Both the position numbers and the translations under genes were made by a program. 64,000 nucleotides of DNA from Candidatus Limnocylindria bacterium (GTDB lineage Bacteria > Chloroflexota > Limnocylindria > P2-11E), in the NCBI GenBank assembly GCA_041496945.1, contig JBGQFO010000003.1, positions 16,415 to 80,414 on the forward strand. The letters are read 5' to 3'. Below are positions 3,263 to 59,540 of this stretch, in pieces. The first letter of the stretch is position 1. Each line of letters begins with the position of its first letter. The notes under the pieces are model-generated. The model searched no databases. It saw only the letters and a program-made list of their open reading frames with translations, and had not been told where the DNA came from.

Positions 3263-3264
3263 CG

Positions 3265-4680: not shown

Positions 4681-4697
4681 GACGCGCCTCCCTCTGG

Positions 4698-5351: not shown

Positions 5352-6251
5352 CTACGTCCTCCTTTGGATCGTGTTCCGTAGCACGCCGATGCCCTCGATC
5401 TCGACCTCGACCGTATCGCCGACCTTCATGAACTCGGGCGGCTTCCGAGCGAAACCGACGCCCTCTGGCGTTCCCGTGATGAGGATGTCGCCGGGCTCGA
5501 GCTCGATGCCGGCGGAGAATTCACGGACCAGACGCGGCAGCTTGAAGACCATGAACTTGGTGTTCGAATCTTGCTTCGTCTTCCCGTTGACGCGTGTCTG
5601 GATGCGTAGGGCGGTGGGGTCGAGCTCGTCCGCCGTGACGATCCATGGCCCGAGCGGCAGATGGCTGTCGAAGTTCTTTCCCTTGAACCATTGGCCACCG
5701 TGGCGGCGCTGCACATCGCGGACCGACACATCGTTCGCACAGGTGTAGCCGAAGATGTGGGTCATCGCGTCATCCTCGGCGATGTCGCGCCCACGGCGGC
5801 CGATCACGACCGCGAGCTCGACCTCCCAGTCGAGCTCCTTGGAATGGGGTGCCGGGAACCAGACCGGCGCATCCGGCCCGGTCACCGTCGCGGGGTTCTT
5901 CGAGAAGAGCGCCGGGAATTCTGGGATGTCCTGTTGACCGGGCGCACCGGCCGTGGCGCGGACGCGCGCTCCCTCCTGGAAGTGCTCTGAGTAGTTCCAC
6001 CCGACGCAGAACACGTTCCGCCGGGGCCGCGGGATCGGCGCGAGGAGCCGCACCGACGCGACCTTCGCCCCAGAGCCGACCCGGGTCGCGAGATCCCGCA
6101 GCCGCGCATGCAATGCGTCGCCCGCCTCGATCACGCCGAGCATGTCGAGCGGCGCCTCGGGGATGGCGTCGTTGATGGGGACGAGCGTGCCATCGTTCCC
6201 GATGATCGCCACGCGCGGACCGCGGCCCGCGTCGAACGTCGCGAGACGCAT
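5352..6251 (-). CDS. Fumarylacetoacetate hydrolase (FAH) family protein
   Basis: Track ORF 5352..6404. Homology starts at internal M (MRLATFDAGRGPRVAIIGNDG). The C-terminal region GDILITGTPEGVG is typical of FAH. ATG 6251 overlaps the upstream stop by 1 nt (TGATG). Confidence 0.88.
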   Translation of the reverse strand: MRLATFDAGRGPRVAIIGNDGTLVPINDAIPEAPLDMLGVIEAGDALHARLRDLATRVGSGAKVASVRLLAPIPRPRRNVFCVGWNYSEHFQEGARVRATAGAPGQQDIPEFPALFSKNPATVTGPDAPVWFPAPHSKELDWEVELAVVIGRRGRDIAEDDAMTHIFGYTCANDVSVRDVQRRHGGQWFKGKNFDSHLPLGPWIVTADELDPTALRIQTRVNGKTKQDSNTKFMVFKLPRLVREFSAGIELEPGDILITGTPEGVGFARKPPEFMKVGDTVEVEIEGIGVLRNTIQRRT

Positions 6252-12615: not shown

Positions 12616-14286
12616 CTATTCGAGGTAGTCCTTGAGCTTGCGGCTGCGCGAGGGGTGCCGCAGCTTGCGCAGCGCCTTCGCCTCGATCTGGCGGATGCGC
12701 TCGCGCGTGACGTTGAACTCGCGACCGACCTCCTCGAGGGTGCGCGTCCGCCCGTCCTCGAGACCGAACCGCAGCTGGAGGACGCGGCGCTCGCGGAGGG
12801 TGAGCCCCTCGAGCACGCTCTCCACCTGCTCTTTGAGCAGCTTGTGGCTCGCCGCATCGGAAGGCGCGAGCGCCTGGGTGTCGGGGATGAAGTCCCCGAG
12901 GTGGCTGTCCTCTTCCTCACCGATGGGCGTCTCGAGCGAGACCGGCTCCAGCGAGACCATGAGGATCTCGCGGACCTTGTCCGGCGTGACGAGCATCCGC
13001 TCGGCGATCTCCTCCGCGGTCGCCTCGCGGCCGAGCTCCTGGAGCAGACCGCGCGAGACGCGGATGAGCTTGTTGATCGTCTCGACCATGTGCACGGGGA
13101 TCCGGATGGTCCGCGCCTGGTCGGCGATGGCGCGGGTGATCGCCTGGCGGATCCACCACGTCGCGTACGTCGAGAACTTGTAGCCCTTGCGGTAGTCGAA
13201 CTTCTCGACGGCGCGGATGAGGCCGATGTTGCCCTCCTGGATGAGATCGAGGAAGGACATGCCACGGCCGATGTACTTCTTCGCGATCGACACGACCAGC
13301 CGGAGGTTCGCCTCGGTCAGGTTGTGCCGCGCGTCGTCACCCTTCTGGATGAGCTCGTCGGCCAGGCGGCGCAGCCCGCGCTGCTCGTCGGCGTCGGACA
13401 CGACCAGCTGGTCCAGGTGCTTGACCAGGATGTCGCGGACCTCCTGGCCGAGCATGACGAGCTCCCCCAGGCGCTCGGCGCCCTCGGCCGGACCGTGGAT
13501 CTTCGCGTACTGCGGCAGGATGCGGAAGGCCAGACGCTCGGCGTCGCGACGCGCGGCATCGATGAGGGCGACGGTCTCGTCGATGAGCACCTTCGCCTCG
13601 GTCGAGATCTCCTTGCTGTTCGCCTCCGCCTGGAGCGGGTCGCGCAGCTTGAGCAGCCGGTTGGAGACACGGCGAAGGTCCTTGCCGCCGATCTCGTCGT
13701 TGAGCGTGTGGCGCAGCGACTTCAGCGTGAAGCGCGTCGCCTCGTCGACGAACTCCTTGGGACGGCCGACGGCCATGCGCTTCTTCGTCTCGACCCCGAG
13801 CTCGTACAGGTGGATCGCCGAGAGCGCGGGCGACACGAGCGCCTGTTCCCCAAGCTCGATCGACTTCGCGAGGTTGACCTCTTCCTCGGCGGTGAGGAGC
13901 GGGACCTTGCCGATCTCCTTGAGGTACATGCGGACCGGGTCGTCGACGCTGATGAGGTCGCTGGCGAGGACCGCCGAGATGGCGTCCTCGCGCTGCATCT
14001 CCTCGGCCTCTTCCTCTTCCTCCTTGACCTGGGCCCAGTTCGGGCCACGCTCGGCCTCGAGGATCTCGACGTTGTTGTCGTCGAGCGCGAGGAGAAGCTC
14101 TTCGACCTCGCCCGGCTCGGCGTCGGGCATCGCGCGGACGATGTCCTCCTGGGTGACGTACCCCTGCTGCCGACCGCGCGCGAGGAGACGCTCGGCCTGC
14201 TCCTTGTGCTCCGGGTGGATTCCCGTGCGCTCCGGCGCGGCCGCGGCCTTGTCGTCCTTGTCCTTTGTCGCCTTCAGTGTCTTCAT
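12616..14286 (-). CDS. rpoD: RNA polymerase primary sigma factor (sigma-70 family, RpoD/SigA)
   Basis: 556 aa. Regions 2-4 are unmistakable: [53 protein letters not shown] and [22 protein letters not shown]. Confidence 0.97.
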
Positions 14287-16381: not shown

Positions 16382-16648
16382 CTAACGCCTCGGCCGGGCG
16401 CGGACCTCGGCCCAGCTTCGGACGCGGCCAGCCTTGATGTCGCGTTCAGCTCGGGCGATCGCGGCCATCGCCTTCTTGTCGGCCATGATCTCGAGGGTTT
16501 CCTGCCAGCTCTCGAACTCAGCGGCTGACATGACGACAGCTTCGGGCTTGCCCTGCTTCGTGATGACCACGTGTTCGTGCACCGAGGACACCTCATCGAT
16601 GATCCGCGACAGGTCCTTGCGGGCTTCCGTGAGCGGGAGCGTCTTCAT
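16382..16648 (-). CDS. yefM: Type II antitoxin, Phd/YefM family
   Basis: 88 aa. MKTLPLTEARKDLSRIIDEVSSVHEHVVITKQGKPEAVVMSAAEFESWQETLEI is a classic Phd/YefM N-terminal domain. Confidence 0.9.
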   Translation of the reverse strand: MKTLPLTEARKDLSRIIDEVSSVHEHVVITKQGKPEAVVMSAAEFESWQETLEIMADKKAMAAIARAERDIKAGRVRSWAEVRARPRR

Positions 16649-26350: not shown

Positions 26351-27436
26351 GTGAGCGTCGGCTCATATCATCGAAGGACGGTGGGCACGGGCACCTTCGA
26401 TACGCGGGTCGCGGCGATCGACGACGAGATCCGCTCGCTCCTCACGCAGGCCGAGCCGGCGCTGCAGCCCTTCTACGGGATGATGCAGTACCACCTCGGG
26501 CTCGACGCCGAGCGCCCGCGCGGCGGGAAACGGCTTCGCCCGCTCCTCTGCACGCTGGTCTTCGAGGCGCTCGGCGGCGACGCCGCCCGCGTGCTCCCGG
26601 TCGGGGCGGCGGTCGAGCTGCTGCACAACTTCACGCTCATCCACGACGACATCGAAGACCAGGACCCGCGGCGCCACCACCGTCCGACGGTGTGGTCGGT
26701 CTGGGGCGTCCCGCAGGCCATCAACGCCGGAGACGGCATGTACGCCATCTCGCGACTGGCCATGCAGCGCCTGCGCCAGCGTGGCTTCGCGGCGGAGCGC
26801 ATCCTCGACCTCTCCGCACTGCTCGATCAGACCTGCGTCCGCGTCTGCGAGGGCCAGTTCCTCGACATCAGCTTCGAGTCGCGGACCGACGTCACCGCGG
26901 AGCGCTACCGCGCGATGGCCGCGAAGAAGACCGGCGCGCTCTTCGCCGCGTCCGCCCAGGGTCCGGGCATCCTTGCCACCGACGAGCGGACGGTCCACGA
27001 CCAGCTCGCGCGCTTCGGAGCCGAGTTCGGCCAGGCATACCAGGCGTACGACGACGTGCAGGGGGTCTGGGCGACGAGCGAGCGCACCGGCAAGGTGGAG
27101 ATGAACGATCTGGTGAAGCGGAAGAAGTCGCTCCCGGTCGCGCTCGGATTCGAGCGCGCCTCACCAAAGGTGCGGGCACGGCTCGACGTCCTGTTCGCGC
27201 CGGCGGCGCCGCTCGCGGCGGAGAACGTGGAGCAGATCCGGACGATCCTCGAGGAGCTCGAGGTGCGCGCCGCGATCGACCGGGAGATCGGCGACCATCG
27301 CGACCGCGCCCTGGACGTGCTCCGACGCGTGCCGGGCGTCGCCGCGGGCGCCACGCTCGACGCGCTCGAGAGCCTGGTGCGCTCGGCGACGGGCGCGGCC
27401 GAGCCGGTCGCAGCCGCGGGGAGCACGACCGCCTAA
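26351..27436 (+). CDS. Polyprenyl (trans-isoprenyl) diphosphate synthase
   Basis: 361 aa. First Asp-rich motif LIHDDIEDQD and second Asp-rich motif AYQAYDDVQG. Confidence 0.9.
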   Translation: MSVGSYHRRTVGTGTFDTRVAAIDDEIRSLLTQAEPALQPFYGMMQYHLGLDAERPRGGKRLRPLLCTLVFEALGGDAARVLPVGAAVELLHNFTLIHDDIEDQDPRRHHRPTVWSVWGVPQAINAGDGMYAISRLAMQRLRQRGFAAERILDLSALLDQTCVRVCEGQFLDISFESRTDVTAERYRAMAAKKTGALFAASAQGPGILATDERTVHDQLARFGAEFGQAYQAYDDVQGVWATSERTGKVEMNDLVKRKKSLPVALGFERASPKVRARLDVLFAPAAPLAAENVEQIRTILEELEVRAAIDREIGDHRDRALDVLRRVPGVAAGATLDALESLVRSATGAAEPVAAAGSTTA

Positions 27437-27446: not shown

Positions 27447-27938
27447 GTGGCGACCGCGCCGGGTGACCTCATCCTCGAGCCGAACGAGAAGGTGATCCTC
27501 GCCACGCGCCCGCTGTTCCTCTGGGAGCCGCTGGTCCTCCTCGACGTCCTGCTGATCGTCGGCGCGCTCTACTTCTCGGGCCAGACCAACGACGTCGCGG
27601 CGGGCGTGCTCCTCATCGGCGCGGTCCTGCTGATCCTCTGGCTGCTCGTCCGCTGGCTCCCGTGGAGCCGCCGGTGGTACGTGCTCACCGATCGCCGGGT
27701 CATCGCGAAGTGGGGCGTGCTCAACCGCAATCAGGCCGCGCTGCTCATCGAGCGCGTCCAGGACGCCAGCCTCACGCGCCCGTTCCCGCTCTCGATGATC
27801 CGCGATTACGGCGTCATCCACCTCGAGTCGGCCGGCGAGCACGCCGAGGAGCGCATGACCGGCGGCCTGGACGAGTTCGACATGACCGGCGCGACCGCCT
27901 TCTACCGCGCGCTCACCGAGGCGCAGACAAAGAGCTAG
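27447..27938 (+). CDS. Bacterial PH-domain (YdbS/DUF304-like) membrane protein
   Basis: 163 aa with two N-terminal TM helices, then WYVLTDRRVIAKWGVLNRNQAALLIERVQD...GVIHLESAG. Confidence 0.75.
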   Translation: MATAPGDLILEPNEKVILATRPLFLWEPLVLLDVLLIVGALYFSGQTNDVAAGVLLIGAVLLILWLLVRWLPWSRRWYVLTDRRVIAKWGVLNRNQAALLIERVQDASLTRPFPLSMIRDYGVIHLESAGEHAEERMTGGLDEFDMTGATAFYRALTEAQTKS

Positions 27939-27977
27939 CGCGGGCCGCGCGCCTACCCCTGTCTGCGGGGGGGGGTG

Positions 27978-29495
27978 TTACGGGCCGGTGACGAGGAACG
28001 CGAGGTGGAATGCGGGCAGGTTCTCCGCCGGGTGATCGTCGGCGTAGGTGAGCTGTGGCACGCGGAAGTTCAGTGGTCGGGTCTCGACGCCTTTGTAGAT
28101 CCCCGGGTACAGATCGATGTAATGCCAGCCCTGCGCACCTGAGACCCGAAAGACGACCTGCACGTTGCCGCCCGAGTTGAAGCCGCAAGCGTAGCCCGCG
28201 TACGAGTTGTCGTAGGTGAGGTTGTAGATGTTCGCGGTCTCCGTCCAGCCGACGCCGTTCAGCTGGATCGTGACCTCGGTGCCGGATGGCCCGCGATCGA
28301 TCTTCAGCGGCTGGATGGACGGCTGGATGATGAACGTCGTCTTCGCGATCACGGTGTCGCCGCGCTTGAGCGAGAGGACGTGCGACCCGCCGAGATCGTC
28401 GGGGACGGTGAACGGCATCGAGAGCTTCCCGTCGCGGTCGGTGTGCCCCTTCGCGATCGTGTCGGCCTTCGCCTCGAAGCCGGACCCGGACACGCGGTTG
28501 CCCACTGTCGTCGTCCACTCGAGGTCGAACTCGCCGCTTGGCGTGAGCCCCGATCCGTGAAGCGTGGTCTTCGCGCCCACGATGCCGGAAGGCGGGTCGA
28601 ACCAAATGCCGGTCGGGGCCGGGGCGGTCGCGAGCGTCGACAGGCCCTGGGCTGAGGCTGGGGCCGGAAGGACAGCCGGTCCGTCGGTGATGGTGAAGGG
28701 CAGGCGGAACATCGGACGCCCCGGCTCAGGCGATTGCTGCATGTTGAGGTACGGGAACGTGAAGTCGCCGTGCAGGACCGTCACGATGTGCGTGCCGAGC
28801 TCGCCGGTGGCGGGGATGACAGCCTTCGCGTAGCCCTTCGTCGTCACCGACGAGAGCCACCCGGTGAAGGAGTTGTCGTAGCTGGCGAGCCAGCTGTTCT
28901 CGAGCTGCCGCCAGCCGATGCCACGTGCCTCGATGGTGATCGGTGTCCCGAGCGGGCCGCTCTTGGGGCTGATCGTGACCTGGAGGTCGACGTCGAACCC
29001 CGCCTTGTTGCGGATGACGCTCGCGGTGTCGCGAACGAGGACGTCGTGCTGGAATCCGAAGTCGTTGTCGGGGACGATGAGCGTGGTCGCGAACGCGCCG
29101 GCGGCGTCCGTGGTGACGCGCTTCAGGATCTTCTCGGCCGGCTTGTATTCGCGGCCCTTGTACTCGGTCTGGTCCGCCGAGAGGACCCACTTGCCCGTGA
29201 CCGTCGTCCACACGAGGTCGTAGGGCGTCTGGGCCTTGAGGCCGCTCCCGCTCGCCGCCACGCTCGTGCCCCACGGGCCGTGGAGCGGCGAGAGTCCGAA
29301 CTTGCCCATGATCTCGAGCGGTGCCTCGCTCGCCGCCGGCGCCGGAGCCGTGGTGACCCCCGCGCTCGCTGCCTTCGTGGCCGCCGCGGCCCCGGTCGTC
29401 GCGACCGGGGCCAGGCGAGAGGCCTCCGAACACGCGCCGAGAACGAGGGCGATGGCGACGAGCGCGGCGATCGCCGGCCGACCGGCGGCACGCAT
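27978..29495 (-). CDS. Exported lipoprotein with duplicated two-domain (A-B-A-B) Ig/TIG-like architecture, function unknown
   Basis: 505 aa. Lipoprotein signal MRAAGRPAIAALVAIALVLGAC. Internal repeats: GPWGTSVAASGSGL..YDLVWTTV versus GIVGAKTTLHGSGL..FDLEWTTT, and GPLGTPITIEARGIGW....SYDNSFTGW versus GPSGTEVTIQLNGVGW....TYDNSYAGY. Last gene of the nrfCD-like operon. Confidence 0.8.
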   Translation of the reverse strand: MRAAGRPAIAALVAIALVLGACSEASRLAPVATTGAAAATKAASAGVTTAPAPAASEAPLEIMGKFGLSPLHGPWGTSVAASGSGLKAQTPYDLVWTTVTGKWVLSADQTEYKGREYKPAEKILKRVTTDAAGAFATTLIVPDNDFGFQHDVLVRDTASVIRNKAGFDVDLQVTISPKSGPLGTPITIEARGIGWRQLENSWLASYDNSFTGWLSSVTTKGYAKAVIPATGELGTHIVTVLHGDFTFPYLNMQQSPEPGRPMFRLPFTITDGPAVLPAPASAQGLSTLATAPAPTGIWFDPPSGIVGAKTTLHGSGLTPSGEFDLEWTTTVGNRVSGSGFEAKADTIAKGHTDRDGKLSMPFTVPDDLGGSHVLSLKRGDTVIAKTTFIIQPSIQPLKIDRGPSGTEVTIQLNGVGWTETANIYNLTYDNSYAGYACGFNSGGNVQVVFRVSGAQGWHYIDLYPGIYKGVETRPLNFRVPQLTYADDHPAENLPAFHLAFLVTGP

Positions 29496-29496
29496 G

Positions 29497-30060
29497 TCAG
29501 CGGGTCCCTACGGGGATGACCTGGAGCAGCGACGACGCGACGTTGAACTGATCGTAGGTGCCGGTCGTGCCCTCCAGGCTGATCGCCACGAGCTTGTACT
29601 TGAACGCGCCGGTCGGGTAGTCGGCCGGGATCTTGAACGAGGTGGTCCAGAAGTAGTCGTCGGTCTTTCCCTTCGGGTGCGGCCCGAACTTCAGGTCCTT
29701 CGTCGTGGCGTCGGGAAGCGTGATGACGACCGACTTCAGCTGCTTGTCGTCCATCGGCTTGCCGGTGGCGGTGCTGTAGACCTTCACGCGCCAGACGATC
29801 GGCTCACCCTGAGGAAAGCGGTTCTTCTGCACGCAGGAGAACGCGGCCTTCTCCTCATCGGTGATCCCGATCGAGCCACTGGTCGTGTCCGCGACGACGA
29901 TGAGCATGTTCGCAGCGGCGGGACCTTGCGGCGCGGCCGGCTGGGCCGCCGCCGCGCTGGTTGGCGCGGTTGACGCGACGGGTTCGGGCGGCGTACCGCC
30001 GCAGGAGACGACGAATCCGGCGACCATGACGAGGATGCCGATACGTGACCTGACCTTCAC
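29497..30060 (-). CDS. Exported lipoprotein, function unknown
   Basis: 187 aa. Signal and lipobox MKVRSRIGILVMVAGFVVSC, a Pro/Ala linker, then a beta-rich domain (WRVKVY...DDYFWTTSFKIPADYPTGAFKY). 1-nt gap to the next gene. Confidence 0.8.
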   Translation of the reverse strand: MKVRSRIGILVMVAGFVVSCGGTPPEPVASTAPTSAAAAQPAAPQGPAAANMLIVVADTTSGSIGITDEEKAAFSCVQKNRFPQGEPIVWRVKVYSTATGKPMDDKQLKSVVITLPDATTKDLKFGPHPKGKTDDYFWTTSFKIPADYPTGAFKYKLVAISLEGTTGTYDQFNVASSLLQVIPVGTR

Positions 30061-30069
30061 ATCTACCTC

Positions 30070-30780
30070 CTAGATTTCTCGAGCTCGCCCGGGGTAGGGA
30101 CTGCGGTGAACGCCGCGTGGGATGCGGTATGCGGTCCCGAAGACGACGAACGCGAAGAGCGCCCAGATCGAGAGGAGGACGAACGCGCCCACGGACGGCA
30201 CGCGCACGCTGAACGGATCGAGCGGCAGATCCTCGCGCGCGTAGGTCGTCGGGGCGACGCGGACGGCCTGGATCGTCGCCGTCGCTTGCGTCGCGGCGAG
30301 ACGGTCCCACTGGGTCGGCCGGGCGACGATGGTGTGCGCGCCGCCCTCGGCCGGCAGGTAGTCGATCGCCACGGTGCCGAAGCCGTCGGTCTTCGCGGCA
30401 CCGATCCACATCTCGCGCGGGCCGAGGAGCTCGACCACGTCGTAGAACGCGATCTCCGTGCCGACGAGCGCCTTGCCATCCTTGCCGACGAGCCGCGCCT
30501 CGAGGGCGTAGCCCCTGGCCTCCTTCGTCGCGGGTTGGACGGAGAGCGATGTGAGCGCGCGCGCCGCCGTCGGGGCGACACCCGAGACCTGCAGCGCGGG
30601 CGCGGCCCGCGCGCCGGACGACGACGACGCGGCCTGACCCTGCTGCGCCAGCCGGCCCGAGGCATCGAGCATCACCCGCGGACCGAACAGGCCGCTGACC
30701 GCCCGTGCCCCGCCGCCGAACAGCATGAACGCGGCGAGGAACGCGACGACGATGAGCGCGAGCCCGCGAGCTCTACTCAT
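30070..30780 (-). CDS. Bitopic membrane protein with N-terminal signal/anchor, Ig-like middle domain and C-terminal TM helix; function unknown
   Basis: Track ORF 30070..30855, with start at internal ATG 30780 (MSRARGLALIVVAFLAAFMLFGG) overlapping the nrfD-like stop by 8 nt. Middle region YALEARLVGKDGKALVGTEIAFYDV. C-terminal helix VGAFVLLSIWALFAFVVFGTAY. Contains no Cys. Confidence 0.7.
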   Translation of the reverse strand: MSRARGLALIVVAFLAAFMLFGGGARAVSGLFGPRVMLDASGRLAQQGQAASSSSGARAAPALQVSGVAPTAARALTSLSVQPATKEARGYALEARLVGKDGKALVGTEIAFYDVVELLGPREMWIGAAKTDGFGTVAIDYLPAEGGAHTIVARPTQWDRLAATQATATIQAVRVAPTTYAREDLPLDPFSVRVPSVGAFVLLSIWALFAFVVFGTAYRIPRGVHRSPYPGRAREI

Positions 30781-32128
30781 CTCCACCCCCGTACGCGACC
30801 GCGACGCCTGGCGCCCTCGCGCGTGCGCTGGTGACCGCGGGAGCGGCCACGACACCCTCGACCTCCTCGACCTCGTGGATGGACATCACCGGCACGAGCG
30901 CGAACAGGACCATGAGGCCGAGCGGGATCGCGGCGACCGCGGCCGCGGTGATCGTGAGCTCGACCCAGGTGGGTCGGTAGAGCGCGAGCGGCGAGACCGG
31001 CTCGGTGATCCCGGGGATGAGGATGATGAGGTAGCGCTTCAGCCACATCGCGGCGATCAGCAGCGCCGACGCGAACGAGGCCCTCGCGACCAGATACCGG
31101 CCGGGCAGAGCGACAAGCACGAGGGGTAACACGAGCCCGCCCAGCACGATCGCCCAGAACAGGGGCGCGTACGAGCCGATGAAGAGCGCGCGGAGGATGG
31201 CGCCCGTCTCGCCGGTCTGCGTGTACCCCTCGGTGAGGTACTCCGCGACCATGAAGTACAGATAGCCCGCGCCGAGCGCGAGGAGCAGATACGAGAGATA
31301 GCGGAAATGCGTGCGCGTGATGAACGGCTCGAGGTGATAGGCCTTTCGCGCCGCCGCAAGGACCAGGATCACCATCGCGACGCCGGACAGCATCGCCGCC
31401 ATCACGAAGAGGGGCCCGAAGATCGTGCTGTGCCAGCCCTCGCGCACGGTCATCGCGAAGAGCCACGCCAGGACGGAATGGACCGAGATCGCGAGCGGAA
31501 TGATGAGGACGGCCATGATCAGCGTGGCACGCAGCAGCCAGCGCTCCTGCTCGGGCGTGCCCTCCCAACGGAGCGCGAGCGCCGCGTAGAGCTTCCGGCG
31601 CAGCGCACGCGCCGGCAGCGTGTCGCGGAAGCGGCCGAGGTCCGGGATGAGCGGCAGTGCGAAGAAGATGAGCGTGCCCACGAGGTACGTGGTGATCGCG
31701 ATCCAGTCCCAGGTGATCGGCGAACCGACCTGCGCGTATAGGAAGAGGTTGAGCATGCGATCGGGCCGCCCGACGTCGATGAGCACCGAGATGGCGCCGA
31801 CGGCGAGCGTAACGACGGCCGTCGCCTCGGCGATCCGGGTGATCGGCGCGCGCCATTTCGCGCCGGTGAGCCGCAGGATCGCTGACGTGATCGCTCCGCC
31901 GTAGCTGATGCCGATGAAGAAGACGAAGTTCGCGATGTAAAGGCCCCAGAAGATCGTGTGGTTCACGCCGGTGACGCCATGACCGTTCGTGACCTGGTAG
32001 GCGTAGGCGTAGATCCCAGCGGCCACGACGAGGACGAGCAGCGTGGCGATGATCCACCAGAGCGGACCGGTCCGTCCGATGTTCGCGCTCGCGCGCTCGA
32101 GGTAGAGGCGGTGCGTACGCTCGTCCAT
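30773..32128 (-). CDS. NrfD/PsrC-family polytopic quinone-interacting membrane subunit
   Basis: 451 aa, about 10 TM segments. N-terminal region GPLWWIIATLLVLVVAAGIYAYAYQVTNGHGVTGVNHTIFWGLYIANFVFFIGISYGGA is typical of NrfD/ActC/DsrP-like proteins. The start abuts the nrfC-like stop with no gap. Confidence 0.9.
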   Translation of the reverse strand: MDERTHRLYLERASANIGRTGPLWWIIATLLVLVVAAGIYAYAYQVTNGHGVTGVNHTIFWGLYIANFVFFIGISYGGAITSAILRLTGAKWRAPITRIAEATAVVTLAVGAISVLIDVGRPDRMLNLFLYAQVGSPITWDWIAITTYLVGTLIFFALPLIPDLGRFRDTLPARALRRKLYAALALRWEGTPEQERWLLRATLIMAVLIIPLAISVHSVLAWLFAMTVREGWHSTIFGPLFVMAAMLSGVAMVILVLAAARKAYHLEPFITRTHFRYLSYLLLALGAGYLYFMVAEYLTEGYTQTGETGAILRALFIGSYAPLFWAIVLGGLVLPLVLVALPGRYLVARASFASALLIAAMWLKRYLIILIPGITEPVSPLALYRPTWVELTITAAAVAAIPLGLMVLFALVPVMSIHEVEEVEGVVAAPAVTSARARAPGVAVAYGGGDE

Positions 32129-32938
32129 CTAGAACCCCAGATCCTGGCCGTGGCCGGCGATGTAGTAGACGCGCGGCCCGGTGTGGAGCTCTTCCTTGTA
32201 CCGGAACGCGTCGTTGTCCTTCAGGAACTCGGAGAGCCGGACCGTCTCGCGGCCATTCGTCGCGATGTCGGAGATGAAGTCGCCGATGTAGAGCGCGTAC
32301 ATGTTGCAGCCTTCGACGCACGCGGGCAGCTTTCCCATCGCCGTGAAGTGGACGCAGAACATGCACTTCCCGACCGTGCCCTTCTGCTGCGGCACGGGGT
32401 ATTGCGGCGTGGGTCGCCCGAACGGATTGTCGAAGGCCGGCGGATCGGTGTCGTTGAAGTACCGCACCCCGTAGGGGCATGCCGCCATGCACATGCGGCA
32501 GCCGATGCAGCGATCCTGGTCCACGAGGTTCACGCCCTCGGGGTCTTTGAACGTCGCGCCGACCGGGCACACGCGGATGCAGGGAGCGTTCTCGCACTGC
32601 ATGCACGGCTGCGGCATGAAGAACTCCTGACCGCTCTTGGTCGTGCGCTTGTGGACCTTGATCCACTGGAAGCTCTTCGGGAGGTGGTGCGCCACCTGAC
32701 AGGCTTCGGTGCACTTCTCGCAGCCGTCGCAGCGGCGCATGTCAACGACCATCGCCCACTGGTGCTGCTTCGACGGTGGCGTCGCGGCTTCCGCCTCGAA
32801 GCGGATCGGGGCGAAGTTCGCGGCGGCGAGCGCGCCGGCTCCACCACCCAGCCCGCCGAGGAACTGCCGGCGAGAGATCCTGCCCACGTCCACGACTCCG
32901 TAGCGCGCGCTCTCAGCGCGTTCTTTGGTTGCGCGCAA
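32129..32938 (-). CDS. Tat-exported 4x[4Fe-4S] ferredoxin subunit (NrfC/PsrB/DmsB-like)
   Basis: 269 aa. Twin-arginine signal SRRQFLGGLGGGAGALAAANF. Four Cys clusters: CDGCEKCTEAC, CMQCENAPCIRVCP, CIGCRMCMAACP and CMFC...CVEGC. The start is TTG 32938, or GTG 32893/32887. Confidence 0.92.
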   Translation of the reverse strand: MRATKERAESARYGVVDVGRISRRQFLGGLGGGAGALAAANFAPIRFEAEAATPPSKQHQWAMVVDMRRCDGCEKCTEACQVAHHLPKSFQWIKVHKRTTKSGQEFFMPQPCMQCENAPCIRVCPVGATFKDPEGVNLVDQDRCIGCRMCMAACPYGVRYFNDTDPPAFDNPFGRPTPQYPVPQQKGTVGKCMFCVHFTAMGKLPACVEGCNMYALYIGDFISDIATNGRETVRLSEFLKDNDAFRYKEELHTGPRVYYIAGHGQDLGF

Positions 32939-33157
32939 GATGCGGTAAGAGCCGGCTTAGGGATAGTTGCGAATGGCATGAAGCGCGTAGGACGAAGGCG
33001 TCGTGTGGTGTCATGCCGATCCTGTTCTCGCTCAGCGGGCACTCAGCCAGAGGACGCCACCGGCGCCTACTCCATGAGAGTTCGCTCAGCAAAGGACCCT
33101 TTGGCCCTTTCGAGATGCGACCGTCGGCCCTTCGCGCAGGAGCCACGCGTCCTCACC

Positions 33158-33868
33158 ATGCGCACCGTGGAGCACGTCCAGGACGGCGGCGCTCGCGTAC
33201 TCGTGGTCGACGACGAACCGGGCATCGCGAGCCTCGTCCGCCGCGGCCTGCTCGGCGCCGGCTTCCGCGTGCGTGAGGAGCTCGATGGTGAGGGCGCGCT
33301 CCGCGCGCTCGAACGGTGGTCGCCCGACGTCGTCGTCCTCGACGTCATGATGCCGGGCCTCGACGGCCTCACGGTGTGCCGCCGGGCGCGCATGGCCGAT
33401 CCAGGGCTTGGGATCCTGATGCTGACGGCGAGAGACGCCACGATGGACGAGGTGATCGGCCTCGAGTCAGGCGCCGACGACTACCTCGCGAAGCCATTCA
33501 GCATCAGCGTGCTCGTCGCTCGGGTCCGCTCGCTGCTCCGCCGCCGCGAGCCAGGAGCCGGTGGGACCCTCGAGTACGAAGACCTACGCCTCGACACCTC
33601 CGCGCACGTGGCGCAGCGCGCCGGTCGGGAGATCCACCTGACCCTGACGGAATACCGCCTGCTGCATCAGTTCCTTCGCGCGCCCGAGGAGGTCCTGTCG
33701 AAGGCGGTCCTGATCAACCGCGTGTGGGGGCAGCAATTCGGCGGGAGCGACAACGTGCTCGAGGTGTACGTTCGCTACCTGCGCCAGAAGCTCGAGCCCG
33801 CAGGCGAGCCGCGCCTCATCCATACGCTGCGCGGTAGCGGTTACGTGCTGCGCCGCACGCCGCCGTAG
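33158..33868 (+). CDS. OmpR/PhoB-family response regulator
   Basis: C-terminal 236 aa of the spurious 636-aa track ORF 31958..33868. Start at ATG 33158. Receiver domain VLVVDDEPGI...DVVVLDVMMPGLDG...LTARD...KPF. Winged-helix domain LTLTEYRLLHQFL...VEVYVRYLRQKL...IHTLRGSGY. Confidence 0.93.
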   Translation: MRTVEHVQDGGARVLVVDDEPGIASLVRRGLLGAGFRVREELDGEGALRALERWSPDVVVLDVMMPGLDGLTVCRRARMADPGLGILMLTARDATMDEVIGLESGADDYLAKPFSISVLVARVRSLLRRREPGAGGTLEYEDLRLDTSAHVAQRAGREIHLTLTEYRLLHQFLRAPEEVLSKAVLINRVWGQQFGGSDNVLEVYVRYLRQKLEPAGEPRLIHTLRGSGYVLRRTPP

Positions 33869-50586: not shown

Positions 50587-51629
50587 TAGAAGGCCTGTGC
50601 CAGCAGCTCGACCTCCGCGGCGAGCTCGGGGCGGCCGTCGAGACGAAGCGCCTGGACGAGCAGCTGCACCTTCGCCTTCGCGACGTCGCGCTTGCCGAGG
50701 CTGCGCGCCACGTCCACCAGAAGGCGCTGCGCGTCGTGCACCGCGATACCCGAGGCGATGAGCTGTAGGAGAAGATCGGAGGCGGCGTCCATGCGCCCGT
50801 CGGCGATGTACCGCTTCGCCGCCTCGAGCGCGGCCCCACCGCCACGCGGGTCGCCCTTCGCGAGGTAACGCGCCGCGGTCGCCTCGACCGCCTGCGCGTC
50901 GGCGCCCGCCGCGATCGGCTCGCCGTCAGCGGCATCCGGGCCCGCGGCCGCGGCCCAGGCATCGCCGCCGCCCGACGCGGATGCGCTCCATTTGCCGCCA
51001 CCGCTCGGCGCGGGTGATTCCCACGACGCGGGCGGCGCGTTCCACGTCGTCCCCTCGGCCGGCGTCGGCGCGGAGCCGACGAACGCGGTGCGCATGAGCG
51101 CGTCGCGATCGGCGGACGATTCCTTCGGCTTCGGGATCGCGGCACCCGCGCTGTGCGCGATCTCGACGAGCTCGGCATTGCCGGGAAGGCGATCGAGCGC
51201 GAACGAGGCCTCGAGCCTCGCGCGGTCGGTGTCCTTCGCCTCGAGCGCGGCCTTGATGTAGCGGACGTACTCGTGCGCCGCATCGTCCGTCTCGCCCGAG
51301 AGCGCGAGCGCTGCCGCGAGACGGCGGTGCGCGGTGAGATCGTGTGGATCGAACGTGGTCGCCTCGTGGTAGAGCGCGATCGCGGAAGCGCGCTGGCCCG
51401 CCTTCGCGAGGGCCGCACCGCCATCGAGAAGCACGCGGAGCGCCGCGGGGCGATCCTCCTGCTCGACGAGCACCTTGGCGAGGCCGCGATAGCCGCCCTC
51501 CGACGCGGGGAAGTGCTGCATCAGATAACGGAACTGCTCCTCGGCCTGGCGCAGCCTCCCGCCCTGCAGGCTCTTCAGGCCCGAGGCGAGGGCGACCTTG
51601 TAGTTGAAGTCAGCGGAGCGGCTTGCCAA
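50586..51629 (-). CDS. TPR-like repeat protein, function unknown
   Basis: 347 aa. Helical-repeat N-terminal and C-terminal parts flank a Gly/Ala/Ser/Trp-rich low-complexity linker. The stop overlaps the cdaA ATG by 1 nt. Confidence 0.7.
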   Translation of the reverse strand: MASRSADFNYKVALASGLKSLQGGRLRQAEEQFRYLMQHFPASEGGYRGLAKVLVEQEDRPAALRVLLDGGAALAKAGQRASAIALYHEATTFDPHDLTAHRRLAAALALSGETDDAAHEYVRYIKAALEAKDTDRARLEASFALDRLPGNAELVEIAHSAGAAIPKPKESSADRDALMRTAFVGSAPTPAEGTTWNAPPASWESPAPSGGGKWSASASGGGDAWAAAAGPDAADGEPIAAGADAQAVEATAARYLAKGDPRGGGAALEAAKRYIADGRMDAASDLLLQLIASGIAVHDAQRLLVDVARSLGKRDVAKAKVQLLVQALRLDGRPELAAEVELLAQAF

Positions 51630-51650
51630 CGCACACAGTGTGCGCCTCTG

Positions 51651-52046
51651 CTACCGCTTCGTGAACTGCGGCGCCTTGCGCGCGCGCTTCAGGCCCGGCT
51701 TCTTCCGCTCCTTGGCGCGCGGGTCGCGCGTGAGGAGTCCGGCCTGGCGGAGCGCCTTGGTGTTGTCCTTGTCGACCTGCAGGAGCGCGCGGGCGATGCC
51801 GTGCGCGATCGCTCCGACCTGCCCGGTCACGCCGCCGCCCTGGACCTTGATCATCGCGTTGAACTTGCGAACGGTGTTGGTGACGCCGAATGGGGCGGTG
51901 GCGCGCTCCACGAGACCGCCACGGCCGAAGTACTCATCGAGCGGCTTGCCGTTCACCACGACAGCGCCCTCGCCGGGAACGAGGCGGACGCGAGCGATCG
52001 CCGTCTTCCGCCGGCCGGTGCCCTGGAAATATGCGGCGTTCTTCAT
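51651..52046 (-). CDS. rpsI: 30S ribosomal protein S9
   Basis: 131 aa. Contains [12 protein letters not shown] and ends [18 protein letters not shown]. Confidence 0.97.
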
Positions 52047-52495
52047 CGCGTCGCCTCCTTCAGCGGTTGCGGCTTCTGCGCCGCGTGCGGGTGCTGCGCA
52101 CCGGCGTAGATGAACAGCTTCCGCATCATCTGATCGCCGAGGCGGTTCTGCGGCAGCATGCCGCGCACCGCGCGGCGGATGACCTCCTCAGGACGCCGCG
52201 CGAGCAGCGCCTCGAGGTTCTCGGCGCGGAAGCCACCCGGGTAACCCGAGTGGCGGACGTACATCTTGTCCTTGAGCTTCTTGCCGGTGACCTTGAACTT
52301 CGCCGCGTTGACGACGATGACCGGATCGCCAGTGTCGAGGCTCGGCGTGAAGGTCACCTTGTGCTTGCCGCGCAGGAGTACGGCGATCCCCGTCGCGAGG
52401 CGGCCGAGCGTGGCGCCCTCGGCGTCCACGACCCGCCAGTCGCGCCGGACCTCGCTGATCTTCGCCGAGTACGTCTTCGCGGTCGTCTTCGTCAT
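52043..52495 (-). CDS. rplM: 50S ribosomal protein L13
   Basis: Track ORF 52043..52570, with start at internal ATG 52495. Contains [17 protein letters not shown]...LLRGKHK. Confidence 0.95.
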
Positions 52496-52511
52496 TGTCT
52501 GCGCTCGCTCC

Positions 52512-53267
52512 TCATTCGTCCGCCTGATCTCTCTCGCCTTCGCTCTCGCGTGGCTCGCGTGCTCCGTCATAGCTGACCCTGATCAAACACAGCCCCTGTG
52601 CCGGTGCGCTCGGACCCGCCTGCGTACGGTCGCCGGAATCGAGGATCTCCACGAAGCGGTCCACCGAGGTCTTGCCTCGGCCGACCCAGAGGAGCGTCCC
52701 CACGATCCCGCGGACCATACCCCGGAGGAACGCGTCGGCCTCGATCTCGAAGCGGAGGACGCTGCCCTCCTCGCTCCAGACCGCGCGCCGCACGGTACGC
52801 CCGCCCGATACGCCCGCCGCGAACGCGGCGAAGTCGTGGCGACCCACCAGGCGCGCGCTCGCGTCGCGCATCGCCGCTCGATCGAGCGTCACCGAGAGCC
52901 ACTGCTCCCGCCGCCGTTCGAGCGGATCGCGCGTCGCCGCGTTCCGGATCCGATATTCATATGTCCGTCCCGTCGCCGAGAACCGCGCGTGGAACGTCTC
53001 CCCCGCCGGCTCCAGACCCGAGACCGCGATGTCCTCGGGGAGAAGGGCGTTGACCCCTCTCTCCATCGTGCTCCCGTCCAGCGTGCTCGCCGTCCGGAAG
53101 TCGATCACCTGTCCTGTCGCGTGGACCCCGGCATCGGTGCGGCCCGCACCGGTGATGCGCACCGGCTCGCCGCAGATCTCCGCGAGCACACGCTCGATCT
53201 CCCCCTGCACCGTTGGCGCGTTCGGCTGGACTTGGAACCCCGCGTACTCGGTCCCGTCATAGGCCAC
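52512..53267 (-). CDS. truA: tRNA pseudouridine(38-40) synthase
   Basis: C-terminal part of track ORF 52512..53960, with GTG start at 53267. Contains [14 protein letters not shown]...[15 protein letters not shown]. Confidence 0.88.
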
Positions 53268-53296
53268 GCGCGCCTTCCAGTGCCGTGCCTCGCCCG

Positions 53297-53848
53297 CTAG
53301 TCCTCCTTCGAAGCCGACGGCTTGGCCGTCGTCTTCTTCCGGGTCGCGGTCGAAGCCTTCTTTGGTGCCGCCTTGCTCGCCGCCTTCGCCTTCGCCGGCT
53401 CTTCCGTGGCCTTCTCGCCACTTCCGCGGCGGAGCGACAGGCGACGGCGGCGTGGCTTCTCCTCGGCTGCGGCGGCCGCGGCGGTCTCGTCGACGCCCGG
53501 CATGAGCTCGAGGAGCATGAGCGGCGAGTTGTCGCCCACGCGGCGCGCCAGGCGCGTCATACGCAGGTAGCCCGACGTCCGGTCGGGGTAGCGCTTCGCG
53601 AGGTCGGTGAAGACCTTGTCCACGATCGGTGTCTCGGGCAGCCACGCCGCGGCGCGACGTCGCGCCTCGAGGGAGCCGTCCTTGCCGAGGTTGATCATGC
53701 GGTCGACGAAACCGCGGATCTCCTTGGCTTTCGCCTCGGTCGTCTTCACGCGCTCGTAGCGCAGCACCGACAGCGTCAAGTTGCGGAGCAGCGAACGACG
53801 GAGGTCGCTCTTGCGCCCGAACTTGCGCTGATGGATCTGATGCGGCAT
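53297..53848 (-). CDS. rplQ: 50S ribosomal protein L17 (with Lys/Ala-rich C-terminal tail)
   Basis: 183 aa. Starts MPHQIHQRKFGRKSDLRRSLLRNL. The tail after about residue 120 is AAAAAAEEKPRRRR...AKAKAASKAAPKKA. Confidence 0.96.
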   Translation of the reverse strand: MPHQIHQRKFGRKSDLRRSLLRNLTLSVLRYERVKTTEAKAKEIRGFVDRMINLGKDGSLEARRRAAAWLPETPIVDKVFTDLAKRYPDRTSGYLRMTRLARRVGDNSPLMLLELMPGVDETAAAAAAEEKPRRRRLSLRRGSGEKATEEPAKAKAASKAAPKKASTATRKKTTAKPSASKED

Positions 53849-54864
53849 TAGCCCTCGTCAGTCCCGGCGGGCTCTTCGTCGCCCTCGGTCGTCTCGACTG
53901 CGGCCTCGTCCTCGGCGGTCTCGTCACGCGCGGGCATCTCGATGAGGCCGCGCGCCGCAAGGCGCTCCTTGATCTCGTCGAGCGACTTCTTGCCGAAGTT
54001 GCGCATGCGCAGCAGCTCCTCGTCGGGGGTCTGGAGGAGCTGACCGACCTTCGTGATGCCGTGGCGCTTCAGCGAGTTGAACGCGCGCTGCGGCAGGTCG
54101 AGGTCCTCGATCGGCATGTCGGCGATCTGCGACGGCAGGCTCGAGCCGTTCGTGCGCTCGGGCTGCGCGATCGCGGCCTGCGAACGCGTGAGACCGGCGA
54201 ACAGCGAGAACTGCTGCACGAGGATGTTCGAACCCTGCGCGACCGCCTCATCCGGCGTCGTCGTGCCGTCCGTCCAGACCTCGAGGATCAGCCGGTCGTA
54301 GTTCGTGACCTGACCGACACGAGTGCTCTCGACGGAGAAGTTGACCTTGCGCACCGGGCTGAAGAGCGCGTCGATCGGGATGACCCCGATCGGCAGGCCC
54401 TCACGCCGCTCGGCGGAGTGGAAGCCGCGGCCCTTCTCGACCGTGAGCTCCATCCAGAGCGATGACTCGGGCTCGAGCGTCGCGATCTCCGCCTCCGGGT
54501 TGACGAGCTCGATCTCAGAGGTGGTGGCGATGTCCGCCGCCGTTGCGACGCCGGGGCCGTCCTTCTCGAGCGTGAGCGTCACCGGCTCGTTCGCGAACGA
54601 GCGGAGCCGCACGTTCTTCAGGTTGAGGACGATCTCGACGACGTCCTCCTTCACGCCGGGGATGGTCGAGAACTCGTGCGCGACGCCGCGCACGCGGGCC
54701 GACGTGATGGCCGCGCCCTCGAGCGAGGACAGCAGCACGCGACGGATGGAATTGCCGAGCGTCGTGCCGTAGCCCGGCGGCAGCGGCTCGCACGCGAACT
54801 TCGCGTAGCGATCGTCGCCCTCGATCCGCTCGATCTTTGGGTACTCGAGTTCCACGAGTGTCAT
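53848..54864 (-). CDS. rpoA: DNA-directed RNA polymerase subunit alpha
   Basis: 338 aa. Contains GTTLGNSIRRVLLSSLEGAA and the C-terminal domain LDLPQRAFNSLKRHGITKVGQL. Confidence 0.97.
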   Translation of the reverse strand: MTLVELEYPKIERIEGDDRYAKFACEPLPPGYGTTLGNSIRRVLLSSLEGAAITSARVRGVAHEFSTIPGVKEDVVEIVLNLKNVRLRSFANEPVTLTLEKDGPGVATAADIATTSEIELVNPEAEIATLEPESSLWMELTVEKGRGFHSAERREGLPIGVIPIDALFSPVRKVNFSVESTRVGQVTNYDRLILEVWTDGTTTPDEAVAQGSNILVQQFSLFAGLTRSQAAIAQPERTNGSSLPSQIADMPIEDLDLPQRAFNSLKRHGITKVGQLLQTPDEELLRMRNFGKKSLDEIKERLAARGLIEMPARDETAEDEAAVETTEGDEEPAGTDEG

Positions 54865-54883
54865 TGGGGTTCCTTCCTGCCGA

Positions 54884-55507
54884 CTAGCGTGAGTAATGCT
54901 CGACGACGAGCTGCGTGTTGATCTGCGCCTCGATCTGGTCGCGCGTCGGCAGCGCGAGGACGCGCGCGGTGAATGCCTCAGGATCGGTCTCGAGCCAGGC
55001 CGGCCGCGTCTGGGTCTTCGCCCAGTTCACAGCCTCCTTGAAGTAGTTCGAGCCGCGGCTCGACTCCCGCACCGAGAGCGTGTCGCCGGCCTTGACCTCG
55101 TAGCTCGGCGTCTTTGTGGGCTTGCCGTTCACCACGATGTGTCCGTGCGAGACGAGCTGGCGCGCCTGCGAGCGCGACTTCGCGAAGCCGGCGCGGTAGA
55201 TGGTGTTGTCGAGACGGCGCTCGAGGTTCTGGAGAAGCGTCTCGCCCGTGGCGCCCTTCACCTCGGCGGCGGCCTCGAACGTGTTCTGCATCTGCTTCTC
55301 GAGGACGCCGTAGATCCGACGCATCTTCTGCTTCTCGCGAAGCTGGAGTGCGAAGTCGGAGACCTTGCGCCGGCGCTGCTGGTGCATGCCGGGTGGCGAG
55401 CTGCGCTTCTCGAACGTGCACTTTGTGACGCACTTCTCGCCCTTGAGGAAGAGCTTCATGCCCTCGCGGCGGCACAGGCGGCAGACCGGACCGGTGTAGC
55501 GCGCCAC
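54884..55507 (-). CDS. rpsD: 30S ribosomal protein S4
   Basis: 207 aa. Starts MARYTGPVCRLCRREGMKLFLKGEKC. Confidence 0.97.
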   Translation of the reverse strand: MARYTGPVCRLCRREGMKLFLKGEKCVTKCTFEKRSSPPGMHQQRRRKVSDFALQLREKQKMRRIYGVLEKQMQNTFEAAAEVKGATGETLLQNLERRLDNTIYRAGFAKSRSQARQLVSHGHIVVNGKPTKTPSYEVKAGDTLSVRESSRGSNYFKEAVNWAKTQTRPAWLETDPEAFTARVLALPTRDQIEAQINTQLVVEHYSR

Positions 55508-55945
55508 TTAGACCCTCCGCCGCTTGGGAGGCCGGCAGCCGTTGTGCGGGATGGGCGTGACGTCGGTGATCGCGGTGACCGCGAGGCCGGTGGCCTCGAG
55601 CGCGCGGATCGCGGCCTCGCGGCCCGCACCCGGCCCGCGCACGAAGACCTCGAGGGTCTTCATACCCGCGTCCATGGCCTTGCGCGCCGCGTTCTCGGCG
55701 GCGACCTGCGCGGCGTAGGGCGTGCTCTTGCGCGAGCCCTTCCAACCGGCGGCGCCGGCCGACGACCACGCGATCACGTTCCCAGCCGGGTCGGAGATCG
55801 AGACGATGGTGTTGTTGAAGGAGGCTTTCACGTGTGCGGTGCCACGCGGCACGACCCGGCGCTCGCGCTTCTTGCGCGGCGCGACGGGCTTGCCCTCGGC
55901 GTCCTTGTCCTGTCCTGCGGCCTGCTCGGCTGGCTTGTCTGGCAC
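55508..55945 (-). CDS. rpsK: 30S ribosomal protein S11
   Basis: 145 aa. Contains [15 protein letters not shown] and ends [16 protein letters not shown]. Has a short N-terminal extension. Confidence 0.97.
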
Positions 55946-55959
55946 CTGCTGTCCTTCTC

Positions 55960-56343: not shown

Positions 56344-56456
56344 CAGCCCTGCCTCTGCTTGTGCTTCGGCTCAGAGCAGATGACCAGGATCACCCGCTCG
56401 CGGCGGATGATCTTGCACTTATCGCATCTCTTCTTCACCGAGGCCTGCACTTTCAC
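56343..56456 (-). CDS. rpmJ: 50S ribosomal protein L36 (zinc-binding form)
   Basis: Not in the track (37 aa). Translated by hand from GTG 56456: [37 protein letters not shown]. The stop overlaps the rpsM ATG by 1 nt. Confidence 0.93.
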
Positions 56457-56535
56457 TTCGGGATCGCCCTCGTCACTTTCGACAAAATCCCCTTCGCCAC
56501 AAACTCGCTGTGCATCACGTTCTTGACTTCAATGG

Positions 56536-59534: not shown

Positions 59535-59540
59535 TTCGAT

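Follow-up and report, generated by a model that had tools for sequence, protein, structure and literature searches.

Two beta-sandwich lipoproteins as the candidate terminal module of a five-gene NrfCD-type redox cluster in Limnocylindria

Introduction

The NrfD-type membrane complexes catalogued in PMC8076601 all possess a haem, molybdenum or nickel-iron catalytic subunit. What, then, is served by an NrfC/NrfD pair that has no such subunit beside it? This question is raised by a five-gene operon, here called A to E, of Candidatus Limnocylindria bacterium, a member of the Chloroflexota. We analysed it in a stretch of 64,000 nucleotides (nt) of GenBank assembly GCA_041496945.1 (contig JBGQFO010000003.1, positions 16,415 to 80,414 of the forward strand), which we refer to as the window. 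The operon encodes a ferredoxin (A), a membrane subunit (B) and three exported proteins (C, D and E), and no haem, molybdopterin or copper motif was found within it. A first-pass annotation, made from the DNA sequence alone, had suggested that the operon could specify a new kind of membrane redox complex built around lipoproteins with immunoglobulin (Ig)/TIG folds.

In this study, we compared the operon with its relatives and with described redox systems. We hold, with moderate confidence, that the five genes encode one membrane-bound, outward-facing complex, which connects the quinone pool with a terminal redox module of a new type, D-E, acting reductively and with copper as the first guess for its metal. 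The system is of the known modular NrfD-based type, and it is the terminal module that may be categorically new. The D-E pair is abundant in soil and freshwater bacteria, and wherever it is annotated its proteins are called "hypothetical". Should D-E prove to be a terminal oxidoreductase, it would represent an unrecognised respiratory or detoxifying activity in Limnocylindria, Beijerinckiaceae, Xanthobacteraceae, Burkholderiales and Deinococcus, one that metagenome-based metabolic reconstructions would currently miss. A new metal site may come to light as well. These ideas can be tested directly, as the pair also occurs in a cultured organism, Deinococcus sp. D7000, and in simple two-gene versions.

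The five-gene cluster and its conserved core

The five genes lie on the minus strand and are tightly packed, and their open reading frames and junctions, with gaps or overlaps of 0-9 nt, were found as the first-pass annotation had described them. Gene A (32129..32938) encodes a Tat-exported, NrfC/DsrO-like ferredoxin of 269 amino acids (aa) with Cys motifs for four [4Fe-4S] clusters. It abuts gene B (30773..32128) with a junction of 0 nt. B is an NrfD-family (PF03916) integral membrane quinol/quinone subunit of 451 aa and of the ActC/DsrP-like type with ten transmembrane (TM) segments. Gene C (30070..30780) overlaps B by 8 nt when its start is placed at 30780, and specifies an accessory subunit of 236 aa in which hydropathy and Big_3_5/Big_1 matches outline an exported Ig-like domain between two TM helices. 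D follows after 9 nt (29497..30060; 187 aa) and E after 1 nt more (27978..29495; 505 aa). Both are lipoproteins, with the lipoboxes VVSC and LGAC, respectively. D, the small subunit of the pair, has one beta-sandwich domain; E, the large one, has four in tandem, of IPT/TIG or macroglobulin-like type. Besides the lipobox Cys, D and E contain one further Cys each (C76 in D and C437 in E), and C contains none, again as first annotated. The haem-binding motif CxxCH is absent from the operon proteins and from all plausible genes of the window, and our motif scans agree with the earlier statement that the operon holds no catalytic or haem partner.

In a genome collection that represents each species once, a profile of E matched 195 stretches; 80 loci were fetched, and the five window proteins were mapped onto them by tblastn. 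The order A-B-C-D-E recurred in 15 complete genome loci, with identities to the window proteins of 51-74% for A, 43-66% for B, 31-45% for C, 32-54% for D and 49-61% for E. In one locus (L056), A, B, D and E were detected and C fell below the search threshold, and three incomplete contigs hold part of the cluster. Individual homologues led to five more loci (L081, L083, L084, L087 and L091), with the same cluster in unrelated surroundings. Altogether, at least 21 Chloroflexota loci, mostly from Limnocylindria, share the arrangement, with differing flanks where genes were called, and this is far beyond chance. The proposal that the gene set is kept as a unit in relatives is therefore borne out by these loci, all in the same order, and also by gene fusions that tie C to the membrane module (see below).

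Two diverged copies can occur in one genome. Thus, the whole cluster is present twice in the metagenome-assembled genome (MAG) JAJYLV01 (L003 and L005), and L032 and L033 come from one MAG. These duplicate clusters or pairs suggest paralogous specialisation.

Records of E homologues carry the label Chloroflexota or Candidatus Limnocylindria. The conserved core is the D-E pair and not the five-gene set. Among loci without NrfCD that have enough upstream sequence, D adjoins E in 32 of 35 and is the sole conserved neighbour of E. The labels of these loci are Alphaproteobacteria (Beijerinckiaceae, Stellaceae, Xanthobacteraceae and Bauldia), Burkholderiales and Chloroflexia. In the cultured Deinococcus sp. 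D7000, the pair is carried by plasmid p_2 (CP058536.1; L092 8341-10323) and its products, QLG13024.1 and QLG13023.1, are listed as "hypothetical proteins". The D family comprises 626 clusters at 50% identity and the E family 1903 clusters at 90% identity, the latter all unnamed or "hypothetical".

Sequence and fold of D and E

Neither D nor E reaches the threshold of any Pfam or NCBIfam family. In bulk family scans, weak MG2 matches appeared in 7 of 30 relatives of D and weak TIG matches in 23 of 30 relatives of E. Profiles of both families yielded nothing significant against all chain sequences of the PDB. The AlphaFold2 model of E (predicted local distance difference test, pLDDT, 82; predicted template-modelling score 0.78) is purely beta, with four tandem sandwich domains arranged as an internal (1-2)(3-4) repeat, and that of D (pLDDT 77) is purely beta with a single sandwich; in their folded parts both models are confident. 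Foldseek matched E only to macroglobulin (MG)- and Ig-domain arrays, such as complement and bacterial alpha-2-macroglobulin, with template-modelling scores of 0.12-0.19, and D only to generic E-set domains. No cupredoxin, superoxide reductase, DOMON or NEAT domain appeared in the top Foldseek lists for either protein. In hhalign comparisons, D and C each showed a weak, fold-level similarity to E. Hence, C, D and E belong to the IPT/TIG, macroglobulin or bacterial Ig-like beta-sandwich superfamily, an assignment that concerns fold class and not function. The earlier view that the three proteins are not homologues of known subunits agrees with the Pfam, NCBIfam, PDB-profile (including four structures of alternative complex III, ACIII) and Foldseek results.

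Residue conservation is strikingly high in both proteins. C76 of D is found in all of 92 sequences (the window protein and 91 representatives), and R91, W138 and H128 are conserved at 95%, 96% and 91%, respectively. In E, the residues H150, H236, C437, H458, H488, D207, D429, D461, D487, Y249, Y435 and Y463 are each at least 97% conserved over 90 sequences that span 38-100% identity. The invariant Cys of each protein and four to five His residues of E are suggestive of a metal site that the two subunits may share. D and E match no copper-protein family of Pfam or NCBIfam, neither C437 nor C76 has a His beside it, and Met- or His-rich motifs are absent from the pair. The signal peptides of D and E are of the lipoprotein type in Chloroflexota and plain in Proteobacteria, with no conserved Tat consensus; therefore, any cofactor is probably acquired outside the cytoplasm.

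Some D-family proteins of 324-407 aa (P0179, P0182, P0183 and P0184) hold two tandem D domains, and others carry N-terminal extensions of ~150 aa without a Pfam family. A candidate flavinylation motif picked out by eye in D (DTTSGS) was discarded, as proteobacterial D proteins have EGDMVRG at this position.

The fold of the pair also bears on a reading in which D-E is not a redox module at all. In this case, D-E would be a hydrolase or transpeptidase that depends on Cys and His, an adhesin of the thioester or isopeptide type, or a protease trap of the cell envelope resembling macroglobulins, and its linkage to electron transfer would be incidental or regulatory. The best fold matches of E are indeed macroglobulin-domain arrays and D has weak MG2 matches. 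Moreover, the conserved Cys, His and Asp residues could make a catalytic triad, and most D-E pairs stand alone. However, the low template-modelling scores of the macroglobulin matches speak against such a function, and so does the absence from E of the thioester motif CxEQ, the surroundings of C437 being YACGFN. The coupling to NrfCD in at least 21 operon loci, together with the fusion of D to cytochrome c, the adjacency of NapC and the promoter boxes described below, all suggest redox work. We consider a non-redox function very unlikely.

Electron inputs and regulation of the D-E pair

Outside the Chloroflexota cluster, D-E occurs with other electron carriers. In seven alphaproteobacterial loci, a gene for a NapC/NirT tetrahaem quinol dehydrogenase (PF03264, 2.5e-65; four CxxCH) lies directly upstream of D on the same strand, with an apparent gap to D of up to ~100 nt. 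NapC/NirT is the commonest family among 87 co-directional neighbours of D-E, and one of the NapC-D-E loci encodes an additional cytochrome c. Unrelated as proteins, NapC/NirT and NrfCD do the same job, namely passing electrons from the quinol pool to a periplasmic redox partner. A third type of link was found in P0290 (L088 803-1657), in which D is extended at its C-terminus by a class I cytochrome c domain (PF00034, 4.7e-13; one CxxCH). This gene is present on 15 contigs of sequencing-run assemblies and is followed by an E homologue (L088 1689-3077; 3e-91, 38% identity). P0312 has the same D-cytochrome c architecture.

The control of these operons points in the same direction. Of 51 proteobacterial D-E or NapC-D-E operons, 11 have an exact TTGA-N6-TCAA box, of the type recognised by FNR/FixK, in the 350 nt upstream, as compared with 4 of 373 other gene starts of the same loci (binomial P ~7e-12), which amounts to a ~20-fold enrichment. 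Expressed as density, there are 0.57 boxes per kb upstream of D-E versus 0.024 per kb in the background. Two near-duplicate locus pairs are included among the 11 boxed operons, leaving an independent count of ~9. The boxes precede NapC in five of the seven NapC loci (L013, L018, L023, L025 and L036) and D in L031, L032/L033, L075 and L085/L086. No enrichment of Fur, Irr, RirA or CueR-like boxes was seen upstream of D-E. In Chloroflexota, no FNR-type box was found upstream of the clusters, elsewhere in the window, or in the divergent intergenic region between A and the adjacent response regulator gene (32939..33157), which we read directly as the presumed promoter region and which has no match to the sigma-70 consensus. 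Because of the NapC linkage and the FNR-type boxes, we favour a reductive direction and a low-oxygen role for D-E. Altogether, the NapC/NirT linkage, the cytochrome c fusion and the FNR/FixK-type boxes lend support to the initial suggestion of a new membrane redox complex with Ig/TIG-fold lipoproteins.

These different partners have to be considered together with another possibility, in which NrfCD, with or without C, serves a catalytic subunit encoded elsewhere (a multihaem cytochrome, a molybdoenzyme or a copper protein), and D-E is an accessory, scaffold or envelope component that merely shares the operon. Consistent with this, D and E have no recognisable cofactor motif, the part of the genome inspected was 64 kb and contained no CxxCH gene, and each characterised NrfD complex in PMC8076601 has a haem, molybdenum or nickel-iron catalytic subunit. 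Nevertheless, a molybdoenzyme, NrfA-type, haem or copper partner was not found beside the cluster in any of ~21 loci with called genes or tblastn maps. It is also hard to square a passive scaffold with the fact that D-E accompanies three unrelated electron-transfer partners, that is, NrfCD, NapC and a fused cytochrome c, and the strict invariance of the Cys residues of D and E argues in the same sense. Thus, an unlinked partner is, in our opinion, quite unlikely.

In some Chloroflexota loci, an OmpR/PhoB-type response regulator gene is divergent from A. In the window, it stands alone (33158..33868, plus strand; Response_reg and Trans_reg_C) and could be the regulator of the operon. Such a regulator occupies this position in 7 of 20 related loci, accompanied by a histidine kinase in six of these seven. 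The best NCBIfam match of the kinase is a heavy-metal sensor kinase subfamily, all kinase and regulator matches to NCBIfam being below cut-off. A role of these proteins as copper sensors was considered and dropped, as sub-threshold heavy-metal matches are not diagnostic. In L081, the cluster is preceded by genes for a tandem-USP protein, a GAF-HisKA_3 kinase and two LuxR-type response regulators (1391-6129), an arrangement that resembles DosS/DosR, and it is followed by a gene for a PCYCGC-domain protein (12744-12944), downstream of what is a Limnocylindria-type cluster. A PAS-HisKA_3/LuxR pair precedes a Chloroflexia locus with D-E only. These two-component neighbours fit environmental or redox control and are not diagnostic.

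Several of these observations would also suit a metal-handling module. In this alternative, D-E would be an extracytoplasmic copper (or iron) reductase or chaperone that draws on NrfCD, NapC or cytochrome c for the electrons needed to hold its metal in the reduced state, ready to be taken up, delivered or detoxified. In favour of this, D and E are beta-sandwich proteins with Sec-type export and with invariant Cys and His residues, and copper proteins of the CopC, PCuAC and YcnI types share the fold class of D-E. The two-component genes in 7 of 20 loci with their heavy-metal kinase match, the PCYCGC-domain protein in L081 and the housekeeping contexts of stand-alone proteobacterial D-E pairs can be counted on the same side. 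Yet D-E lacks Met- and His-rich motifs and copper-protein family matches, and the kinase and regulator fall below every family cut-off. In addition, no conserved metal transporter is found nearby, and a dedicated NapC and FNR/FixK boxes suit low-oxygen respiration rather than metal stress. We therefore judge metal handling to be unlikely.

Other genes recur around the proteobacterial pairs. A gene for a UbiE-like methyltransferase precedes NapC in four NapC-D-E loci, namely L013 (7750-8541), L018, L023 and L040. A homocysteine S-methyltransferase gene follows E in L013 (11674-13029) and L018; L023 has its homologue another ~5 kb downstream, and L040 lacks one. Near other D-E pairs, genes for a chromate transporter, NMT1 and TauE turn up repeatedly. 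These neighbours may link D-E to sulfur, selenium or oxyanion chemistry.

The NrfCD module and subunit C

The assignments of A and B made in the first-pass annotation were confirmed. A contains 16 Cys residues in CxxCxxCxxxC-type motifs at positions 70, 112, 144 and 192, and a Tat motif (SRRQFL). It matches Fer4_11 (4e-18) and TAT_signal in Pfam, as expected for an exported ferredoxin with four clusters. Its best NCBIfam match is DsrO (NF045797) at 190.8 bits, under the cut-off of 200, and A is thus not assigned to the DsrO equivalog. The nearest solved structures are ArrB (6cz7_B, 5e-35), PsrB (2vpw_B) and the iron-sulfur (FeS) domain of ActB.

B has no Cys, ~9-10 hydrophobic segments, and a match to the Pfam family NrfD (PF03916) at 2e-33 and 116.8 bits, well above the cut-off of 25.8, which makes it a member of this family. 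The best NCBIfam match is DsrP at 115 bits, far under the cut-off of 350. Its nearest solved structures are the ActC chains of ACIII (6f0k_C at 2e-51, then 6btm_C, 6lod_C and 8k9e_C; range 2e-51 to 2e-38), and PsrC was not detected at E<=1e-3 in the same search of PDB chains. Residues described for ActC of R. marinus (PMC8076601, Table 2) were mapped onto B by alignment, and their conservation was followed over 121 B homologues. In ActC, the quinone site comprises His139, Ser164, Asp169 and Asp253, and the ion pathway includes the gate residue Arg395 (PMC8076601, Table 2). The B equivalents of ActC Ser103, Arg114, Arg119, Glu122, Ser164, Asp169, Tyr176, His247, Glu326 and Arg395 are the same in all 121 homologues, and that of Asp191 is kept in 120 of 121. 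Most residues of the N-side pathway are among those retained. The equivalent of Glu394 is an invariant Lys. The residues that are kept, together with the replacement of His139, Asp253 and Glu394, indicate that B probably functions as an ActC/DsrP-type subunit whose quinone pocket is somewhat altered. As the ion-pathway residues are conserved, energy conservation by the complex stays possible. Public databases label B homologues as "polysulfide reductase NrfD", "molybdoenzyme membrane anchor" or "HybB-like", and none of these labels is justified by the gene context.

C had been described as a bitopic protein with an Ig-like ectodomain. The Ig-like domain stood the test, with Big_3_5 found in 15 and Big_1 in 14 of 17 members of the C family, but the protein has a hydrophobic helix at both the N- and C-terminus and is not strictly bitopic. 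It reaches no family of Pfam or NCBIfam, and the C-family profile gave nothing significant against all PDB chain sequences, including four ACIII entries. As no Cys or His is conserved in the family, we take C to be structural. In one Chloroflexota sub-clade, B and C are fused, giving a four-gene operon A-BC-D-E. The fusion defines six protein clusters at 90% identity, made of NrfD proteins of 667-693 aa in which the C-terminal 230 residues correspond to C (P0342, at L091 8001-10079; P0337, P0339, P0340, P0343 and P0344), and it is also present in L003. Both termini of ActC-type NrfD proteins are on the cytoplasmic side (PMC8076601). Given this topology, the fusion implies a genuine TM helix at the start of C and an external position of the Ig domain, and it makes C a physical component of the membrane module.

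A proposed mechanism and its weight

These results can be assembled into a working model. B would bind quinol and retains the residues of a proposed ion pathway. A would dock on B and act as an electron wire through its four [4Fe-4S] clusters. The helices of C may pack against B, and its Ig-like domain probably helps to hold the lipoproteins. D and E, anchored by lipids, would assemble on A as the terminal module, the pair being encoded by an independently mobile gene pair. Electrons would then run from quinol through B and the FeS chain of A to the D-E site and on to a small acceptor. This site would combine one invariant Cys from each of the two proteins with the four to five His residues that are invariant in E, and it may be a metal centre that is loaded outside the cell; for this last reason copper is the obvious candidate and our first guess. 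The flow of electrons would be reductive, as in a low-oxygen terminal reductase. The simplest account of the Chloroflexota operon is a five-subunit quinol:acceptor oxidoreductase, a haem- and molybdenum-free relative of ACIII.

A broader proposal is more tentative, and we regard it as possible rather than probable. D-E could be the founding member of a new class of extracytoplasmic oxidoreductases that consist of beta-sandwich domains only. At the interface of the two proteins there would be a Cys/His site of a kind not described before, probably for copper. Working as a terminal reductase at low oxygen, the pair would have acquired three electron inputs in the course of evolution: the haem-free and possibly ion-pumping NrfCD in Chloroflexota, NapC/NirT in Alphaproteobacteria and, elsewhere, a cytochrome c that is either fused or soluble.

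Several points weigh against the complex that we favour. C, D and E have no identifiable cofactor motif and their structure matches are generic beta-sandwiches. Two of the four quinone-site residues of ActC are kept in B, where His139 is replaced by an invariant Asp and Asp253 by a near-invariant Leu. The seven NapC loci are mutually related (NapC identity 66-100%) and may reflect a single evolutionary event, and most proteobacterial D-E pairs have no adjacent electron donor. The fusion to cytochrome c is rare, being present in 2 of 148 representative D proteins examined from the family of 626 clusters. Our search for a haem or molybdenum partner covered the 64-kb window, and such a partner could be encoded in the rest of the genome. 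Finally, nearly all data come from MAGs, whose taxon labels may include binning errors.

Comparison with known systems

The NrfCD half of the cluster is closest to ActB2/ActC of ACIII and to DsrOP, and the D-E half belongs to no described family. ACIII (ActABCDEF), a quinol:cytochrome c/auracyanin oxidoreductase, resembles the cluster in several respects. Among solved structures, B comes closest to ActC chains and keeps their ion-pathway and gate residues, A corresponds to the FeS portion of ActB, additional small TM and lipoprotein subunits are present in both, and ACIII also occurs in Chloroflexota, where it feeds a membrane-anchored copper protein. In contrast to ACIII, the cluster has no pentahaem ActA, monohaem ActE or second NrfD protein (ActF), A, with its 269 aa, lacks the molybdopterin-like ActB1 domain, and the C, D and E profiles have no significant match among PDB chains, the four ACIII entries included.

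The likeness to DsrMKJOP lies in the best NCBIfam matches of A and B (DsrO and DsrP, both below their cut-offs), whereas DsrM, DsrK and the trihaem DsrJ are absent from cluster and window. With the NrfCD/PsrBC modules of complex iron-sulfur molybdoenzymes (Psr, Ttr, Arr, Nrf and Dms), the cluster shares a Tat-exported four-cluster ferredoxin and an NrfD anchor. Unlike these systems, it has no catalytic subunit of the NrfA type or with a molybdenum bis(pyranopterin guanine dinucleotide) cofactor beside the module in any locus, and B is of the 10-TM ActC type. Hence, the cluster fails to qualify as a member of ACIII, DsrMKJOP, Qrc or the molybdoenzymes.

The proteobacterial versions recall the NapC/NirT-dependent reductases (Nap, NirS, Tor and Dor), in which a membrane quinol dehydrogenase feeds a periplasmic terminal enzyme, either soluble or anchored, under FNR/FixK-type control. 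A copper enzyme fed by an NrfCD-like pair is also known, namely NosZ, which receives electrons through NosGH. However, D-E shows no relation, in sequence or in fold, to NapA, NirS, TorA or NosZ, being a plain beta-sandwich without a family match. No description of the five-gene cluster was found in literature searches, in the review of NrfD proteins (PMC8076601) or in PMC10732223.

Genomic surroundings in the window

The operon ends in a terminator-like hairpin (27937..27953, minus strand), with a GC-rich stem and a T-run 25 nt past the stop codon of E; this feature is a consensus match only. The flanks are of a housekeeping nature and encode GlyRS, RecO, a polyprenyl synthase, a bPH_2 membrane protein, the OmpR-type regulator, a cytidine deaminase, a CNNM/CorC transporter and GlmU. 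The first-pass annotation had drawn attention to the polyprenyl diphosphate synthase and the response regulator that flank the operon. Both are present, the synthase gene (26351-27436) adjoining the operon, but the regulator is found in about a third of the loci and the synthase is absent near the cluster in every related locus. The synthase was consequently rejected as a functional neighbour, its adjacency looking coincidental.

Further along the minus strand, the region ~51600-64000 is dense in short, highly expressed-looking genes and reads like a ribosomal-protein/SecY/adenylate kinase/Map operon, which places the redox cluster in a core chromosomal region and not in an island. Elsewhere among the housekeeping genes, an open reading frame of 88 aa (16382-16648, minus strand), with the N-terminus MKTLPLTEARKDLSRIIDEV..., reads like a Phd/YefM-type antitoxin.

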